DNA from: a virus
Taxonomy: Duplodnaviria > Caudoviricetes
Direction: 5' to 3' (one strand)
Length of the DNA stretch: 37,330 nucleotides
Virus record (IMG/VR): IMGVR_UViG_3300043493_000052
Coordinates: 1 to 37,330 of that record
A program made the position numbers and the translations under genes. The notes beneath the pieces were generated by a model, which ran no database searches, was not told the origin of the DNA, and worked only from the letters and a program-made list of their open reading frames with translations. Positions within the stretch are counted from its first letter, which is position 1, and each line of letters begins with the position of its first letter. Shown piece after piece: positions 4,122 to 11,802 of the stretch.

Positions 4122-5114
4122 ATGGCAGTAGCTGGATATGAATATCGAATAGACGGCGGCTCGCCTGTGGACATGGGATTGACCAATCCCGTCACAGCAA
4201 GCGGCCTCACCGCCGCGACCTCGTATGATTTCGAATTTCGGGCGTATGACGGCGCGGGGAATCGTTCGGCGTGGACTTCCATTGTCAGCGAATCGACTGA
4301 TGCGTTCCCCGGCCTTATCGACGTAGTAGGTCAGTCTGCTGCTGCGGCATACGGTGTGCGGAAACTGCGTGGTGCTTACGCCGGTTCAGCGGTTCGGGTT
4401 CGCCGTGCCTCAGATAATGCCGAGCAGGATATAGGTTTCTCTGGCGAAGCTTTAGACTGGGCTTCTGCGATCAGTTTCAAAGGAGCCTCCACCATCTTTG
4501 TAAAAACGTGGTACGACCAAAGTGGTGGTTCAGCGGATCTAACGCAAGCGACTGCTGCAAGTCAGGCAGGGCTTGACACGTCTGGAGAACAACTCACATT
4601 TGACGGTTCTAATGATTTTTATAGCGTGGCATTAGACCTGTCGGCGTCGGATAAGCTCTCTGCATTCATGGTTGCAGCTTCAGCGACGAACGCAGACTAT
4701 CAGATATTGTTGGAGCATAACACCGGAGCGGCAGCAAACGACCTCTTGATATTCACAAATTCGGGAGCGGTGTGTGCGTTTTACTCTCAAGTCGCATCTG
4801 TTGGTAACGCGGAGTCTGTAAACTCATTTACATCGGGGGCAGACCGTCTGGTAACGGTGATAACAGACCGGTCATTAACGGGCAGCAGCATTGTCAAAGC
4901 TCGTGTCGATGCATCGAACGCGAACGATGTGGCTACCAGTAACATCTCCGGTAATTATGCAAACGCCAACCTGAACGTCGGAGCCAGGAACAACGGGTCA
5001 ACATTCTTTATTGCAGGCTCAATGAAGGAGATCGTTCTTTTTCAAGCCGCCCTGAACAACACCGAACGCGACGACGGCGAGGCAAACATCAACACGTATC
5101 ACACGATCTACTAA
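4122..5114 (+). CDS. Receptor-binding protein: C-terminal half of FN3 plus arabinofuranosidase-B (GH54)-like/LamG domain
   Basis: VAGYEY...GLTAATSYDFEFRAYDGAGNRS (FN3); AAYGVRKLRGAYAG..VRVRRASDNAEQDIGF...WYDQSG (GH54 catalytic-domain-like N-terminus); ConA-like C-terminus. Confidence 0.7.
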   Translation: MAVAGYEYRIDGGSPVDMGLTNPVTASGLTAATSYDFEFRAYDGAGNRSAWTSIVSESTDAFPGLIDVVGQSAAAAYGVRKLRGAYAGSAVRVRRASDNAEQDIGFSGEALDWASAISFKGASTIFVKTWYDQSGGSADLTQATAASQAGLDTSGEQLTFDGSNDFYSVALDLSASDKLSAFMVAASATNADYQILLEHNTGAAANDLLIFTNSGAVCAFYSQVASVGNAESVNSFTSGADRLVTVITDRSLTGSSIVKARVDASNANDVATSNISGNYANANLNVGARNNGSTFFIAGSMKEIVLFQAALNNTERDDGEANINTYHTIY

Positions 5115-5237
5115 GTTGGTTGCATATACGTTGCGGACTTATCGCGTCAGACTGTTTTATGGTGATTCGTGGAAGGGGATTGGCTTGTATATCGCAACGC
5201 TTTGACACGGTTTGCGATGCGGTGAAATGATACGTTT

Positions 5238-5287
5238 CTCGCTTGGGGTGCGAGAGGTCGCAAGTTCAAATCTTGTCGTCCCGACCA
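5238..5287 (+). other. attP: attP core: 3' half of tRNA-Pro(GGG)
   Basis: Anticodon arm CTCGC-TTGGGGT-GCGAG, T-arm GCAAG-TTCAAAT-CTTGT, acceptor CGTCCCG-A-CCA; no 5' half upstream; adjacent to the integrase 3' end. Confidence 0.9.
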
Positions 5288-5294
5288 ATAAACA

Positions 5295-5330
5295 AAGGGC
5301 TTTCATTAATTTGGAGGCCCTTCTATATTT
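5295..5330. terminator. Hairpin downstream of the tRNA 3' half, overlapping the int stop
   Basis: AAGGGCTTTC...GGAGGCCCTT stem with A-rich left flank and T-rich right flank. Confidence 0.55.
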
Positions 5331-6379
5331 TGAGTTGGTTGCAGGTTGGTTGCATCAAGCGTATTTACAGCGTCGCGCATTTGTTCGAAATCTTCCTGAA
5401 TGTAGATATCCGTTATGCTCATGTCGGAATGAGCAAACAGGTGCTGGATCGTTTTTGAGTTTTGGTTGCGTCGCATTAGTTCGGTCGCAAATTCCTTTCG
5501 CAGATCGTGAAACGTGTAATTTTCACCCCTCTTGCCATCTTTCTTATTTATTCCGGCCGCGATGAGCAACGGCTTCCAACGTCGCCGGAAATCCTTAATA
5601 GGGAAGGGAAGCGTTCCATCGTCGAGCATTAAGCGGAGCGTGTCCGAGGCAGTAGAATTCAACGGTATAGCCCGAGACGGCCTGCCCTTGCTTGATTCGG
5701 CCAACAATAGTCCATTTTCCAGATCGACGGCAACCGGCGTGATTGCAAGCAATTGGCCTCTTCGCAAAGGCAGATTCAATGCCAGCGTCACCAGCCGGGA
5801 CATTAGTTCGTCTTTTCGCAATTCCTGCCATAGCTTTTCCTTTTCCCTGATCGTGAGCAGCCGTTTGCGTTTCGGCGGTTCTTTCAAACTCTTAACATAC
5901 TGCATCGGGTTGCGGTCTAGGATCCCTTCCTCGCACGCCAGGCTGAACAGCCGCGAAGCCGTGGACATTATTCGATTAACCGATGACGCCGAAGTGCTTT
6001 TTTGAAGTTTCGATCGAACGTCGCGACAATCCTGGGGTGTGATGTCAGCGAGATACTTTCCTTTGAATGCTTTGACGAGGGTTTCGATGTAGAGGCGTTT
6101 AGCCCCAACGTTAACATTATGTCCTTCGTAATATCGCGTGTAAGGACCTTCCGCAAACTCGGTGAAACTCGTATCTGAATGGGCGCCATATCGTTTATTA
6201 AATGCGTTCTTTATTATCGACCGTTCGGCCTGTTCGGCTTCCGTTTTTGTCTGGGCCTCGGGTATCGCTTTGTGAATGATCTTTTTCCCTAACCGCTTCC
6301 ATATATACCAAGTCCCTTTGTCCCAATCCTTAGATTTGGACGTTAGCTTCTTTCCGCGATAGCGTTTCATTACGCTCAT
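5306..6379 (-). CDS. int: Tyrosine recombinase (phage integrase)
   Basis: Catalytic motifs LRRGQL (R), SSKG (K), FHDLR (HxxR), FAHSD (H) and TDIY (Y); next to attP. Confidence 0.95.
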   Translation of the reverse strand: MSVMKRYRGKKLTSKSKDWDKGTWYIWKRLGKKIIHKAIPEAQTKTEAEQAERSIIKNAFNKRYGAHSDTSFTEFAEGPYTRYYEGHNVNVGAKRLYIETLVKAFKGKYLADITPQDCRDVRSKLQKSTSASSVNRIMSTASRLFSLACEEGILDRNPMQYVKSLKEPPKRKRLLTIREKEKLWQELRKDELMSRLVTLALNLPLRRGQLLAITPVAVDLENGLLLAESSKGRPSRAIPLNSTASDTLRLMLDDGTLPFPIKDFRRRWKPLLIAAGINKKDGKRGENYTFHDLRKEFATELMRRNQNSKTIQHLFAHSDMSITDIYIQEDFEQMRDAVNTLDATNLQPTQNIEGPPN

Positions 6380-6629
6380 TTGCTCTCCAATTGCTCACGG
6401 CGGTCAGGCGAAAGCTGGGATGCCCGTTGCCGACGCGATCGAACGGCATGCCTTCGTTCATATAACGGTTAATTGTTGCCGGTGAGAGGTTCCAATGCGC
6501 GGCAAGTTCCGCTTTCGTCATCCATTCTTTTTGAACGACGCGGTCCTTGCGAAATTCGTCTGCGACGGCAGCTGCGGTTCGACGAATGATATCCTCGAGC
6601 TCGCTTTTTTCGAGAGTAATGATCTGCAT
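6330..6629 (-). CDS. xis: Excisionase / AlpA-MerR-like HTH protein
   Basis: WMTKAELAAHWNLSPATINRYMNEGMP...FRLTAVSNW; directly upstream of int. Confidence 0.75.
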   Translation of the reverse strand: MQIITLEKSELEDIIRRTAAAVADEFRKDRVVQKEWMTKAELAAHWNLSPATINRYMNEGMPFDRVGNGHPSFRLTAVSNWRANERNETLSRKEANVQI

Positions 6630-6634
6630 TTGTA

Positions 6635-6703
6635 AAAACTGCAGACCGGTTGGCGTGGTTTAAGCAGAACCAATGTACGCCAACCGCAGCGATGTTGTCA
6701 AAT
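6635..6703 (-). promoter_or_regulatory. xis leader: hairpin plus U-tract; TTGACA-N18-TACATT promoter-like or boxA-like element
   Basis: Perfect 10-bp stem 6647-6656/6677-6686; TTTTT on the minus strand before the xis ATG; ATTTGACAA immediately after the upstream stop. Confidence 0.55.
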
Positions 6704-7270
6704 CTACGGGATCTCGTACCGGCGATCGGTGCAGAGCGTTTCCCAGATCGATTCATTGACCGAGTCCGGGTTGATCGGGTCGCGATAGGACCGTGCCAGG
6801 AATGACGGCAGGTTATACAGCACGCGGCCGCGTGCATCGTATAAAATCCCCGATTCGGTCGTTACGCGTTTGTCGTCGCAGTGAAAGGTCGCGAACGAGA
6901 CCATATATCGATAAGATCTCAACTTCCCAGTAAGGGCCGGTTTAGACGGCACCATTTTCAGCCAAACCTCGACATCGCCGCCCGAACGGTAGCGAATGCC
7001 GCGTGCATAGAATTTATCGCCCTGCTTCGAATCGGCGATCTGCTGCCAGCGTTTTGCGTTCTGTGCGCGTTGCCATGCCTCGAAATCCTTTCTTGCCAGA
7101 TCATCGATCGCGGGATCGCTCGGCACCAGTTTCACCGGCTCATAATCCTGCAGCTCGACCGATTCAACTTTCGGCTTGATCAGGCCTTTGTCGTCAAACT
7201 TCCGAACCTGACCAAAAGCCGAGAGTGTCAAAACAAAACATATTATCGACGTCAGTAAGATGTTTTTCAT
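6704..7270 (-). CDS. Secreted protein with a surface-adhesin-E-like C-terminal domain (lysogenic conversion / exclusion candidate)
   Basis: Signal peptide MKNILLTSIICFVLTLSAFG; W..I....FY...VEVWLK...FHCDD...YDARG...INPDS...LC pattern; ATGA-coupled to the repressor gene. Confidence 0.65.
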   Translation of the reverse strand: MKNILLTSIICFVLTLSAFGQVRKFDDKGLIKPKVESVELQDYEPVKLVPSDPAIDDLARKDFEAWQRAQNAKRWQQIADSKQGDKFYARGIRYRSGGDVEVWLKMVPSKPALTGKLRSYRYMVSFATFHCDDKRVTTESGILYDARGRVLYNLPSFLARSYRDPINPDSVNESIWETLCTDRRYEIP

Positions 7271-7737
7271 TCGGTTTTCCTCTTCCCTTTCGGTGCGAGT
7301 TTCTTTTGTTTTGGCGTTTTTGTCAATGTCCGATCGAGTATGCGCTTGGCGTCGTTCAGTGCGGCGAGCTTCTCTTCGGGCGAATACGTTTCCCAGCCCT
7401 TAAAGAACATCATGCCAAAATCTGACGGAGTCTCCCGGCCCTCGAAAGTGAACCATTCGCTCATGATCATATCCGGGCTGCCGCCTTCGCGGATCTTGGC
7501 GTCGAGGTCGAAGGCCTCGAATTTCGGCTCGGGTTGCGTTTGTGTTTGATATGAGATGGCACGATTTGCGGCGTCTGTAACCGCAGTCCACACGGGCAAA
7601 TATATCGCGATAATTTCTTCCGCGACCTGCTGCGAGCTGCGGCGTCCATTTTTCTCCGCAAGACGGTCCAGTCTCTCGATCATTTCTGGATCGAGATACA
7701 TCTTGAACTGCTCTTTGGTACTCATTAGTAACTTCAT
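7267..7737 (-). CDS. Ribbon-helix-helix repressor candidate (start ATG 7737 or 7725)
   Basis: KEQFKMYLDPEMIERLDRLAEKNGRRSSQQVAEEIIAIYL is a CopG/Arc-like pattern; it occupies the CI position and has no S24 peptidase domain. Confidence 0.7.
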   Translation of the reverse strand: MKLLMSTKEQFKMYLDPEMIERLDRLAEKNGRRSSQQVAEEIIAIYLPVWTAVTDAANRAISYQTQTQPEPKFEAFDLDAKIREGGSPDMIMSEWFTFEGRETPSDFGMMFFKGWETYSPEEKLAALNDAKRILDRTLTKTPKQKKLAPKGKRKTE

Positions 7738-7834
7738 AAACTTTTTTTTCCCAAATTGAAATTTAATGCTTGACAAGTTCCAGTACTTTCTAGTACTTTC
7801 TAGTCACGGCGGTAAAAGTACTAAATAGTACCGC
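7717..7834. promoter_or_regulatory. Divergent switch region with GTAC operator boxes and a rightward sigma70-type promoter
   Basis: TTGACA 7770-7775, N18, TACTTT 7794-7799; AGTACT-like boxes at 7717, 7727, 7782, 7792, 7802, 7817 and 7827 with 10-bp spacing within clusters. Confidence 0.75.
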
Positions 7835-7844
7835 AATAAAATAT

Positions 7845-8030
7845 ATGGCTGAATCAACGAAAAAAGTGATAGCGGACGTGCCTGACGAAATGCGTGACGA
7901 GATCGATGAGCTTGGCGAAAAGCTCGATCTGAAAATGTCTCAAATGGTACGCGAAGCGATGGAAAGAACAATTCCGGTCTGGCGCCAACGGGCAGTCGAA
8001 AGGGCTGAAGCTGCGGGCGTGACGGTGTAA
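7845..8030 (+). CDS. Small ribbon-helix-helix protein (Cro position)
   Basis: KKVIADVPDEMRDEIDELGEKLDLKMSQMVREAME is a CopG-like pattern. Confidence 0.75.
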   Translation: MAESTKKVIADVPDEMRDEIDELGEKLDLKMSQMVREAMERTIPVWRQRAVERAEAAGVTV

Positions 8031-8080
8031 ACGAGATTGTTCAGGGTAAGCAGGCATCTGTCGGGAGAGCACTGAACAAA

Positions 8081-8250
8081 GGCGGCGAGAGGGGATAACG
8101 AACGTAGTGTGTAAAATGACGAACCTCGCCGCCGAATATTTGACAAGTTTTGCCGGTTCGGGATCGGCGAATGCTGGCGGGCAAGCCGCTACTTTAGGCA
8201 AAGGCAGGGCCGGTGGCGTGGTTTAAGCACTTACGACATCGGCCAGCCAA
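8081..8250 (+). ncRNA. Putative structured regulatory RNA in the early rightward transcript
   Basis: Successive stems: GGCGGCGAG/CTCGCCGCC (8081-8133), TTGCCGGT/ATCGGCGA, TGGCGG/CCGCTA and GGCCGGTGGCGT/ACGACATCGGCC (8208-8244); boxA-like ATTTGACAA at 8138. Confidence 0.45.
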
Positions 8251-8257
8251 AAACGAC

Positions 8258-8374
8258 ATGAATAAGCAATTAAAAATTCAACTGGCGATCGGCACGGTGA
8301 TGAGCATTTTGCTCGGGATATCAATTGGCCTTTACATTGCCGCTGCCTTCATCGGACCGGAGCTCGGCAAATGA
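8258..8374 (+). CDS. 38-aa single-TM peptide (not in the ORF track)
   Basis: MNKQLKIQLAIGTVMSILLGISIGLYIAAAFIGPELGK; ATGA overlap with the ORF at 8371. Confidence 0.6.
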   Translation: MNKQLKIQLAIGTVMSILLGISIGLYIAAAFIGPELGK

Positions 8375-8757: not shown

Positions 8758-9723
8758 ATGCAACACGAAAATACAGCGGCAGGGACGGCTTTAGAACGAA
8801 CGTCCGGTCCCGGTAATCAGCAGATCGCGGTCTTTGGCGACATGACGCCCGAGGTCTTTGAGGCCCGGATCAAACGCGACGAGGAAATGCGGACGATCCT
8901 GCGGGATTACGTGAAGCGGAACATGAAGCTCGGCTATCACTTTGACGACAAGATCGGCACGCAAGAGCTAAAGAAACCGATGCTCCTGCAGGAAGGTGCA
9001 CGAAACATCTGCTCGCTTTTCAAGCTGGTAAAGGGTACGCCCGACATCTCGGAAACATGGCTCGAGGGCGATCATTACCGCGTCCGTGCACATGTAAAGC
9101 TTTTCAACGCAATGGGCATCCAGATCGCCAGCGGCGACGGCATCTGTTCGACGCGTGAGACGAAATACGCGTTTCGCAAGGGCGACCGGATATGCCCCGA
9201 ATGCGAAACGCCCGCGATCCGCAAGGACAATAAATCGCCGCAGGGCGGGTTTTATTGCTGGGCAAAGCTCGACGGCTGCGGTGCGAAGTTTGCCGCAAAC
9301 GATGAACGCATCACCGGCCAGCAGCTCGGGCGTGTCGATAATCCGGACAAAGCCGATATCGAAAATACCGTGCTGAAAATGGCGATCAAACGGGCGTTCG
9401 TCGCGGCGGTCTGCGATGTGCCGATGGTTTCGGAACTGTTTGCACCGGAACGACCGAGCGACGAGGGAAAGGCGAAGCCCGAAGCGAAGCGTTCTTCTGC
9501 CGCAAGCGGCAGTGCCGACAAGAGTGTCGCCGCTCCGGCGGCTCCGGCCGAGTCGGTTGTGGAGATCTGCGACGCACTTGCCGGGAAGCTTTTGGAACGC
9601 GGCACCGACCTGACGAAGCTTACTTCGCTGCTGCCCGAGGGCGTGAAGGTCTTTGCCGAAATGACCGAGGACCAGGCGATCGAGGTCAGGCCCAAGCTTG
9701 TCGAACTGCTGAACGCGAAATAA
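8758..9723 (+). CDS. Recombination / single-strand-annealing-like protein with a Zn-ribbon insertion
   Basis: KPMLLQEGARNIC, GDGICSTRE and NTVLKMAIKRAFVAA motifs; CPEC...C.....C insert; GGAG RBS. Confidence 0.55.
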   Translation: MQHENTAAGTALERTSGPGNQQIAVFGDMTPEVFEARIKRDEEMRTILRDYVKRNMKLGYHFDDKIGTQELKKPMLLQEGARNICSLFKLVKGTPDISETWLEGDHYRVRAHVKLFNAMGIQIASGDGICSTRETKYAFRKGDRICPECETPAIRKDNKSPQGGFYCWAKLDGCGAKFAANDERITGQQLGRVDNPDKADIENTVLKMAIKRAFVAAVCDVPMVSELFAPERPSDEGKAKPEAKRSSAASGSADKSVAAPAAPAESVVEICDALAGKLLERGTDLTKLTSLLPEGVKVFAEMTEDQAIEVRPKLVELLNAK

Positions 9724-9830: not shown

Positions 9831-10103
9831 ATGAGCCTTAAAAATCAGCACGGCATTAAGTGGGACGACATCAACGAGGGCGATTGGATCGATATCTCGT
9901 ACTGGCCGCTGATCAAGCATCTGTTCGAGGTCGAGCGGAAAGAGATCCGAAACAAGGTGCCGTCTATTTACATACGGCTGGCTGACGGCGGCCGGGCCCG
10001 GTGCGGCCTCGAGCAGATCAGATCGGTCGTCGATCGTACGACCGGAAGGGAGCAGAGATATGACAACAATGCAGAACGCACAATGCACAATGCAAGATCT
10101 TAA
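9831..10103 (+). CDS. Hypothetical protein
   Basis: 90-aa ORF on the early strand. Confidence 0.55.
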   Translation: MSLKNQHGIKWDDINEGDWIDISYWPLIKHLFEVERKEIRNKVPSIYIRLADGGRARCGLEQIRSVVDRTTGREQRYDNNAERTMHNARS

Positions 10104-10320
10104 GCCCAGGAAGGAGCTTCCGGCATTGAATACCGCGACGTTTTTCTGTTCCGGCTGTTCGATATCTCCGGCACCGGCTGACGGTGCGGATTGCCCGACG
10201 TGCACGAAGGTCCGCAAGGATCCGCGTGAACCGATGCCGCTCAAGGTGCATTTGATATTCGCCCTAGCGTTGCTGGTTCTGATCGCCGGGCTGACGGTCG
10301 CCCTTCGGATGGCGCGTTAA
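10060..10320 (+). CDS. Small Zn-finger protein with a C-terminal TM segment
   Basis: CSGC...CPTC motif; hydrophobic tail; GGGAG RBS. Confidence 0.6.
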   Translation: MTTMQNAQCTMQDLKPRKELPALNTATFFCSGCSISPAPADGADCPTCTKVRKDPREPMPLKVHLIFALALLVLIAGLTVALRMAR

Positions 10321-10406
10321 ATTGTCAAAGATCGGGCACGCGTGCCGACAGCCGCAATATACGCCGACTCACTTCGGCATAAAAGGAAAATCGCAATTCA
10401 TTTTCC
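10321..10406 (-). promoter_or_regulatory. PRE/pE-like leftward promoter with an activator inverted repeat and boxB-boxA
   Basis: Minus strand: TTTTAT-N17-TATATT; GGAAAAT-N8-ATTTTCC abutting the -35; then hairpin TCGGCAC/GTGCCCGA and GATCTTTGACAAT. Confidence 0.5.
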
Positions 10407-10864: not shown

Positions 10865-11017
10865 AACGCACGACGCAGAATGCACGGTGCACGATGAAGA
10901 AACTATTTGAAACACTCTTTTGGCTTTTGGCGATCGCGACCGCCGCGAGGATCTTCGGCGTCGCGAGGAAAAACAAATCTCTGAAATTGTGCATCATGCA
11001 CTGTGAATTATGCATTC
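10865..11017. repeat. Inverted pair of degenerate heptamer arrays (AATGCAC-type) enclosing a short hydrophobic ORF start
   Basis: AACGCAC GACGCAG AATGCAC GGTGCAC GATGAAG on plus; GAATGCA TAATTCA CAGTGCA TGATGCA on minus. Confidence 0.65.
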
Positions 11018-11336
11018 GGAACTTCCATTATTTGATCTGTTTCAAGCCGAGATCGCGGCGGATCGGGGCATTGCACAAGCAGCGGTGAATAAGAGCACGT
11101 CGCTTGAGGCTGCGAAGGCGATAGCGGTCGAGCTCGGGCAGCGGCAGACGTTCGTTACCGCCGATGATGTCATCCGCGTTTACAGCCGCCGGTTTCCGTT
11201 GGAGCCGCTCGGGAATGCAGCCGGCGGGATATTTCGGGATAAGAGGCACTGGCGGTTCGCCGAACGATACGAGCAATGCGAGCGCGTAACCTCGCACGGG
11301 CGGATGCTGCGGGTTTGGGAATTTATCGGGAAATGA
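11010..11336 (+). CDS. Hypothetical phage protein
   Basis: 108-aa ORF; both its start and its stop lie in heptamer arrays. Confidence 0.65.
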   Translation: MHSELPLFDLFQAEIAADRGIAQAAVNKSTSLEAAKAIAVELGQRQTFVTADDVIRVYSRRFPLEPLGNAAGGIFRDKRHWRFAERYEQCERVTSHGRMLRVWEFIGK

Positions 11337-11346
11337 TGAATGCAGA

Positions 11347-11802
11347 ATGATGAATGATGAACTGACGGAATGCCTGGCGGCGGCTGAATTACGGCTTGAC
11401 CGGGCGATGTTTGAAAAGGAATCGCTCGACCGGCAATGCGATGCGTTAGCAAAAGAGATCGACCGTTTGCGGATCGAGATCGCGGTCGGGGAAATGATGG
11501 CGAACGATTTTGACGATTCGCTTGTGGGGGAAAATATGACGACATCACGATTACTTGCGAATGCTTTGAACCGGCAGGATCTCGGCGTCCGGCGTTCGTT
11601 CGAGCGGCTTGAGGAACACGAAAAGGCGGAGGTCGAGGCGTTGTATCGCCGGCACGCCGCGGCGTGCCATAAAGGTGCAATGCCGCCGGAACCTTCCTTA
11701 TGCACGATGAAGATCTTGAAACATTTGAAGCCGTGGGCGAGCTGGTCGATACGGCGTTTCACCTGCATGGCGGCGTCGGGCCATGCGGTGCGAGGGTTTT
11801 AA
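11347..11802 (+). CDS. Hypothetical coiled-coil protein (3' part uncertain)
   Basis: 151-aa ORF; an alternative 40-aa frame at 11700-11822 couples to the next gene. Confidence 0.45.
   Translation: MMNDELTECLAAAELRLDRAMFEKESLDRQCDALAKEIDRLRIEIAVGEMMANDFDDSLVGENMTTSRLLANALNRQDLGVRRSFERLEEHEKAEVEALYRRHAAACHKGAMPPEPSLCTMKILKHLKPWASWSIRRFTCMAASGHAVRGF

Follow-up and report, generated by a model that had tools for sequence, protein, structure and literature searches.

How does a temperate phage time the excision of its prophage when the excision genes lie on the repressor side of its genetic switch? In phages lambda, P2 and 186, a lytic promoter drives the gene for the excision factor directly. 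The window analysed here, a stretch of 37,330 bp that is an entire virus record, holds a complete temperate phage with lambda-type terminase, portal and capsid genes, and no match to it was found among GenBank phages. Its int, xis, accessory and repressor genes run leftward, cro and the lytic genes run rightward, and xis-int therefore sits on the repressor side of a ribbon-helix-helix (RHH) repressor/cro switch. With xis in this position, these phages need another link to lysis, and the sequence suggests that the link is RNA. Comparison of related phages argues that the lytic early transcript and the 5' end of the xis-int RNA are joined by an RNA-RNA link that is real, conserved and well supported; we propose that this link is likely an activating toehold switch, and as such a new form of trans-acting riboregulation.

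The attP core (5235 to 5292, plus strand) is intact and corresponds to the 3' portion of a sequence resembling tRNA-Pro(GGG); two Pyrinomonadaceae genomes contain matches to it, of 98% and 93%. The 93% match lies within a tRNA-Pro(ggg), and at the best match (L355) ARAGORN detects no complete tRNA. Together with the named relatives of the integrase, which come from Pyrinomonadaceae or Acidobacteria, these matches make Pyrinomonadaceae the probable host. The tyrosine integrase gene int (5306 to 6379, minus strand; Pfam PF00589, E 4e-19; PHROG 1) is adjoined by a helix-turn-helix gene (6330 to 6629, minus strand; PHROG 66, E 2e-6; weak HTH_17) whose putative role as the excisionase gene xis is read from these weak family matches and from its position. 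An Adhesin_E-like accessory gene with a signal-peptide-like N-terminus (6704 to 7270, minus strand) lies between the xis promoter and the gene for the putative RHH repressor (7267 to 7737, minus strand; Pfam RHH_1; PHROG CopG/Arc-like), which is 42% identical to its homologue in the relative L037. The first gene of the lytic operon is a small cro-like gene of RHH type (7845 to 8030, plus strand), 49% identical to the L037 homologue, and the cro homologue of another relative, G001, matches the PHROG 876 repressor. Both the repressor and the cro product of the window thus look like ribbon-helix-helix proteins. Between the two genes, a rightward promoter-like site (7770 to 7832, plus strand; TTGACA-18-TACTTT), read by inspection of the sequence and falling under the threshold of the promoter scan, carries four AGTACY putative operator half-sites at 7782, 7792, 7817 and 7827, which lie over the divergent promoters and are conserved in L037.

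The initial annotation reported near-identical plus-strand strings at 6641-6666 and 8204-8229, and these are indeed the top-ranked repeat between 4000 and 12000 (26 nt, 85% identical without gaps). An 18-mer with at most three mismatches has two matches in the window against a mean of 0.05 in shuffled sequence, and none of 100 shuffles reaches two. The first copy falls at the start of the xis-int transcript. A sigma-70-type promoter, Pxis (6672 to 6701, minus strand; TTGACA, 18 nt, TACATT), was located by the promoter scan, with its −35 element at 6701-6696 and its −10 element at 6677-6672. The predicted +1 of the xis-int RNA, 6665, is exactly where complementarity to the second copy starts. 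Promoters of the Pxis pattern occur in the host family, where 161 of 401 genomes match a stricter version, and Pxis itself lacks the AGTACY sites of the repressor. Folding of the leader predicts an unpaired, C/A-rich stretch of 18 nt at the 5' end (6648 to 6665, minus strand), the toehold, followed by an 8-bp hairpin (6621 to 6647, minus strand; −11.1 kcal/mol) with +19 to +26 as its 5' arm and the xis start codon hidden in its 3' arm. A different, longer hairpin (6648 to 6685, minus strand), which the initial annotation had described as terminator-like, does fold (z −3.65 for the region 6620-6710), but its 5' arm sits inside the promoter. It needs sequence upstream of +1 and so, as modelled, can form only in transcripts that read through from the repressor operon, where it would mask most of the toehold: in such RNA the predicted binding of the partner drops from −9.9 to −7.8 kcal/mol. 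Upstream sequence that pairs comparably with the toehold is present in three of the six phages compared below.

The second copy lies in the leader of the lytic early RNA, where it forms the 5' arm and loop of a hairpin (8203 to 8248, plus strand), as had been proposed; the segment 8200-8250 folds at −24.8 kcal/mol (z −4.2) with the loop UUAAGC. Positions 8204-8229 of this trigger hairpin are complementary to +1 to +25 of the xis-int leader, and the loop, 8223-8228, matches +1 to +6, the predicted xis-int RNA beginning with GCUUAA, the exact complement of the loop. A TTGACA near the trigger was considered as a promoter and rejected, since no −10 element follows it in the phages inspected.

We note a further element of the lytic leaders. 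A TTTGA(C/T) motif lies within 80 nt of the trigger in all six phages (post hoc chance product about 2e-6): at 8134 to 8147 on the plus strand of the window, where a hairpin follows it, at L231 17473, L234 10248 and L236 11584, and 24-28 nt before the trigger in L037 and L253. Similar motifs occur about 125 nt before the 16S gene in two genomes of the host family and in one spacer. Given these occurrences, the element, which we take to be boxA-like, may be an antitermination site. In the window, a 19-nt inverted repeat (79%) relates 8131-8149, at the boxA-like site, to 10319-10337, 2.2 kb downstream, and a similar TGTCAAAGATC is found downstream in G003 (L236, about 12027). Short repeats resembling ATGCAGAATGCACAATG and ATGATGA recur at several early gene starts of the window (10068-10091, 10865-10900, 10986-11009 and 11332-11360).

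Is this arrangement peculiar to one phage? Six phages from soil and water could be tested: the window, L037, G001, G002, G003 and L253. L037 is a metagenome contig syntenic with the window and has the same integrase family; the capsids of G001, G002 and G003 are 71-76% identical; and the integrase family differs from that of the window in G001, G003 and L253. Each of the five relatives has a leader/trigger pair, and in each the sequences are unrelated to those of the others, toeholds being only 25-50% identical over 20 nt among the six. The layout is the same throughout. TTGACA-17/18-TAnnnT precedes xis in all six; the leader is predicted to begin with 9-18 unstructured nucleotides followed by an inhibitory hairpin that covers the xis ribosome binding site (RBS) or AUG; the complement of the trigger starts at the predicted +1 in five phages and at +4 in one; the trigger is part of the lytic early region and is separated from the xis AUG by 955-2245 nt; and four to six of the six bases that match the 5' end of the paired stretch are predicted to be unpaired in the trigger loop. 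A point against the xis-int switch proposed below is the pair's retention in G002, where only a 39-aa integrase stub was found. This stub adjoins a tRNA-like att fragment (L254 7001-7117 and L234 8200-8400), and both toehold and trigger are intact.

Leader/trigger matches score 31-41 against background maxima of 20-24, a background that consists of only one and three chunks for L253 and L037, respectively. Because the six sequences do not align, we used a cross-binding matrix in place of column-wise covariation, and the cognate pair is the strongest in all six rows and all six columns (−9.6 to −18.7 kcal/mol). The margin for the window is only about 2 kcal/mol, its cognate pair binding at −9.6 and its best non-cognate pair at −7.7. 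Thus both elements, whose failure to co-vary in relatives the initial annotation had named among the refuting outcomes, have changed together in six of six testable phages. When the same promoter-plus-repeat rule is applied to 175 promoter-like sites in 313 loci, nine score at least 27, namely the six xis promoters and three duplicates, and the rest score 26 or less; having been derived from the six phages, the rule gauges specificity rather than discovery.

Alignment of the integrase returned mostly chromosomal elements with a different, sigma-54-like leader. Among the loci so obtained, 39 had an xis start, of which five were dropped as too short upstream. Of the 34 left, 32 have no such repeat, scoring 17-29 as compared with 35; these come from host genomes and metagenomes and share the int/xis family but not the leader. 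In many Pyrinomonadaceae chromosomal elements (L112-L186), the int-xis pair stands behind a conserved GGCAC-N5-TTGC motif that resembles a sigma-54 promoter, and several genomes carry more than one such element. The single clear contrast case is a prophage, L348, in which an xis-like gene lies directly behind cro and the repeat is absent. L350, L351 and L352 show no promoter-plus-repeat, the gene behind cro in L352 having no family match; G004 (L237) and L349, neither of which includes xis, were left out. The prophage regions found by the capsid search (L243-L250) are other kinds of element or lack the region, and single-protein scans with xis, int and a 321-aa protein gave nothing useful. An exact-motif scan of viral contigs gave 10 matches, none a relative by tblastn, as expected where the sequence is not conserved. 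Finally, we note that in G003 (L236) the first 34 nt of the integrase gene occur at 7782-7815, 8097-8130, 8341-8374 and 8942-8975, the three extra copies flanking small genes between xis and int in a manner that resembles a cassette array; similar copies of the integrase start are seen in G002 (L234, near 8395 and 8770), and a 17-nt repeat in G001 (L231 14748 and 14978).

What, then, does the pairing do? We propose, with a probability of roughly 0.55, that the lytic early transcript acts in trans to switch on xis-int, a direction that we infer from modelled structures. In a lysogen, the repressor would hold the lytic promoter off, and the trigger would be absent. Since xis lies on the repressor side and its promoter lacks AGTACY sites, Pxis would make a leader whose hairpin would keep Xis off, and the prophage would stay. 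Upon loss of the repressor the lytic promoter would fire and the trigger RNA would appear; its loop would capture the xis-int RNA at the unpaired 5' end, from which the pairing would zip into the 5' arm of the blocking hairpin; the opened leader would then allow Xis and Int to be made, and excision would follow. In the window and three relatives, control would be exerted on translation; in L037 and G001, where the blocking hairpin precedes U6 and U5, respectively, it would be exerted on transcription, with the hairpin acting as a terminator, as it does in small transcription activating RNA (STAR) systems. The initial annotation had suggested that lytic RNA licenses xis/int by loop-loop kissing and strand invasion. 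The RNA-RNA link stands and licensing is its likely role, but kissing does not describe the conserved geometry, which is predicted to be that of a 5'-end toehold that enters a loop before the pairing invades a hairpin at the start codon or of terminator type.

Several predicted features are consistent with activation. In all six phages the trigger leaves the RBS and AUG uncovered and pairs with leader sequence 5' of both. In the forced-open form it pairs seven of the eight bases of the blocking 5' arm in the window, and 16 of 20, 4 of 10, 10 of 14, 11 of 12 and 7 of 7 in the others, and with it the 3' arm becomes cheaper to free: 0.4 instead of 8.0 kcal/mol in the window, with a saving of 5.5-14.5 kcal/mol elsewhere. 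Judged by opening cost, the natural 5' extension of the trigger outperforms no fewer than 97 of 100 extensions, whether shuffled or random, in five phages; the exception is G003, which fails the shuffled-extension control (41 of 100), and in L253 a toehold-only control is no worse than the full trigger (8.3 versus 7.3). Equilibrium folding speaks in part against activation. The accessibility of the start region, taken as the mean unpaired probability from −10 to +6 in the leader alone and in the complex, rises with the trigger from 0.55 to 0.68 in the window, from 0.15 to 0.35 in L037 and from 0.30 to 0.51 in G002, is flat in L253 and G003, and is lower in G001 (0.31 to 0.24). Because the equilibrium complex mostly retains the blocking hairpin, with the start region clearly opened in only three of six phages, activation needs co-transcriptional or ribosome-assisted opening. 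Such a switch is plausible, given the strength with which the trigger is predicted to bind the nascent leader before the 3' arm exists (−17 to −32 kcal/mol).

The same pairing could carry the opposite sign, the lytic RNA repressing xis-int by blocking a 5' ribosome standby site or by forming a duplex of 20-35 bp for RNase III, and so ending integration at lysis. The geometry is that of IS10 RNA-IN/RNA-OUT, in which a 5' end meets a loop with repression and double-strand cleavage as the outcome (PMC4737173), and the start region left closed by equilibrium folding in three phages would suit it as well. We nevertheless consider repression unlikely. The RBS and AUG are never covered, the extension of the pairing into the blocking arm is above chance in five of six phages, and in L037 and G001 the trigger pairs with the base of the terminator stem, which can only weaken termination; moreover, if the trigger were a repressor, a lysogen, which lacks it, would be expected to express xis.

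Somewhat less probable still is an exchange of roles, in which the short leader RNA made from Pxis regulates the lytic transcript, forming an immunity layer like P4 CI or P1 C4 that cuts or terminates leaky lytic transcripts, with mutual sponging also conceivable. The terminator of L037 and G001 would let a strong promoter yield a defined RNA some 55-70 nt long, and phage immunity RNAs with such a role exist, as described for C4 (PMC5320573). A terminator-type U run is missing after the hairpin in the other four leaders, however, and the structural consequence that is conserved in all six phages lies on the xis side. On the lytic side we found nothing conserved 3' of the trigger: the sequence differs in every phage, and the freed 3' arm gives no shared structure. 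This weakens both the exchange of roles and an idea of the initial annotation, that the pairing silences a 38-aa hydrophobic peptide encoded 3' of the trigger (8258 to 8374, plus strand). The ORF matches no PHROG family, and the next AUG, which lies 29-47 nt past the complement in four phages and is absent within 90 nt in two, is not hidden by the trigger hairpin; the peptide is thus not a conserved target, and its silencing is not borne out.

Pairing of RNA with RNA, whatever its sign, is very probably what the two copies serve. They could instead be DNA sites for a protein (Xis, Cro or the repressor) with the hairpins incidental, as the copies are direct repeats on DNA, one of them at the +1 of a promoter, and, in the window and G003, inverted repeats reach across the −10 region. 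We regard this as very improbable. The copies are wholly different between phages whose regulators are related, as in the window and L037, with their homologous cro and repressor genes and shared AGTACT sites, and the matches, which run from +1 to a loop, accept bulges as well as changes of G-U type; that the two halves should be replaced in concert while staying anchored at +1 and at a loop is predicted for RNA pairing and not for a protein operator. A chance repeat, duplication relic or assembly artefact, for which one might cite the commonness of short repeats and a weak third copy at 4632 (69% alike), is refuted by the recurrence of the layout with replaced sequences in five independent relatives; against it also stand the shuffles and a source run, possibly the window's own, that gives a single clean contig over 5000-9800 without variants or joints.

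If activation is correct, these phages hold a natural counterpart of engineered toehold and STAR activators and a new solution to the timing of prophage excision, with a start-codon hairpin opened in some phages and a terminator in others. The six mutually specific trigger/leader pairs could be tested in E. coli, and with its own code in each phage, co-resident prophages would not trigger one another's excision. That the Acidobacteria phages harbor a natural family of orthogonal toehold/STAR switches, each with its own code and with excision wired by RNA alone, is a proposal to which we give even odds. No description of RNA-triggered xis expression was found in the open-access literature, which misses most subscription papers, and a 2025 review of phage sRNAs contains no occurrence of 'xis', 'excis' or 'integrase' (PMC12197685).

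How does the proposed switch compare with known systems? The initial annotation had likened its logic to the P1 C4 and P4 CI RNAs. The likeness to P1/P7 C4 and P4 CI lies in a trans-acting phage RNA with phage-specific, imperfect complementarity encoded in the immunity region. C4 (RF01695) has three stems and is processed by RNase P; its a' and b' loops mask an RBS and promote lysogeny (PMC5320573). A C4 member should fit the covariance model, have three stem-loops in about 77 nt and carry RBS-occluding loops, and a C4-type identity does not hold here: the Rfam scan gave no RF01695 match in the window (E at most 1) or in four relative loci (gathering score), the trigger is a single stem-loop, the RBS is spared, and the target, xis, lies in the opposite operon. 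The only Rfam match in the window at that threshold was one weak snoRNA match elsewhere, and the four relative loci gave only a tRNA. For c4-a1b1 there was no Rfam match in the window, but that motif has no Rfam accession in the source table (PMC2864571).

RNA-OUT of IS10 is cis-encoded and fully complementary to its target, and it represses. The phage partner, with its imperfect complementarity, comes from a locus 1-2.2 kb away and is predicted to spare the RBS and to invade an inhibitory hairpin; the likeness lies in an antisense hairpin whose loop takes up the 5' end of a target mRNA, as given for IS10 (PMC4737173) and as predicted here. Activation in trans has a precedent in prophage Gifsy-1, whose IsrK sRNA binds a translationally inactive transcript and activates it (PMC4825925). 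IsrK controls antQ and is itself a shorter isoform of the RNA that it targets, whereas the phage trigger would link divergent operons and target xis-int. Finally, the phage switch would work like synthetic STARs (PMC5648800) and toehold switches (PMC6524683), with an unstructured 5' region and an inhibitory hairpin. For STARs, orthogonal pairs are obtained by varying the linear region (PMC5648800). The trigger of a STAR or toehold switch is a linear RNA, whereas the phage trigger is a natural hairpin in a lytic mRNA leader that offers its loop, and, unlike the synthetic devices, this one group of phages appears to hold both the terminator and the translation versions.
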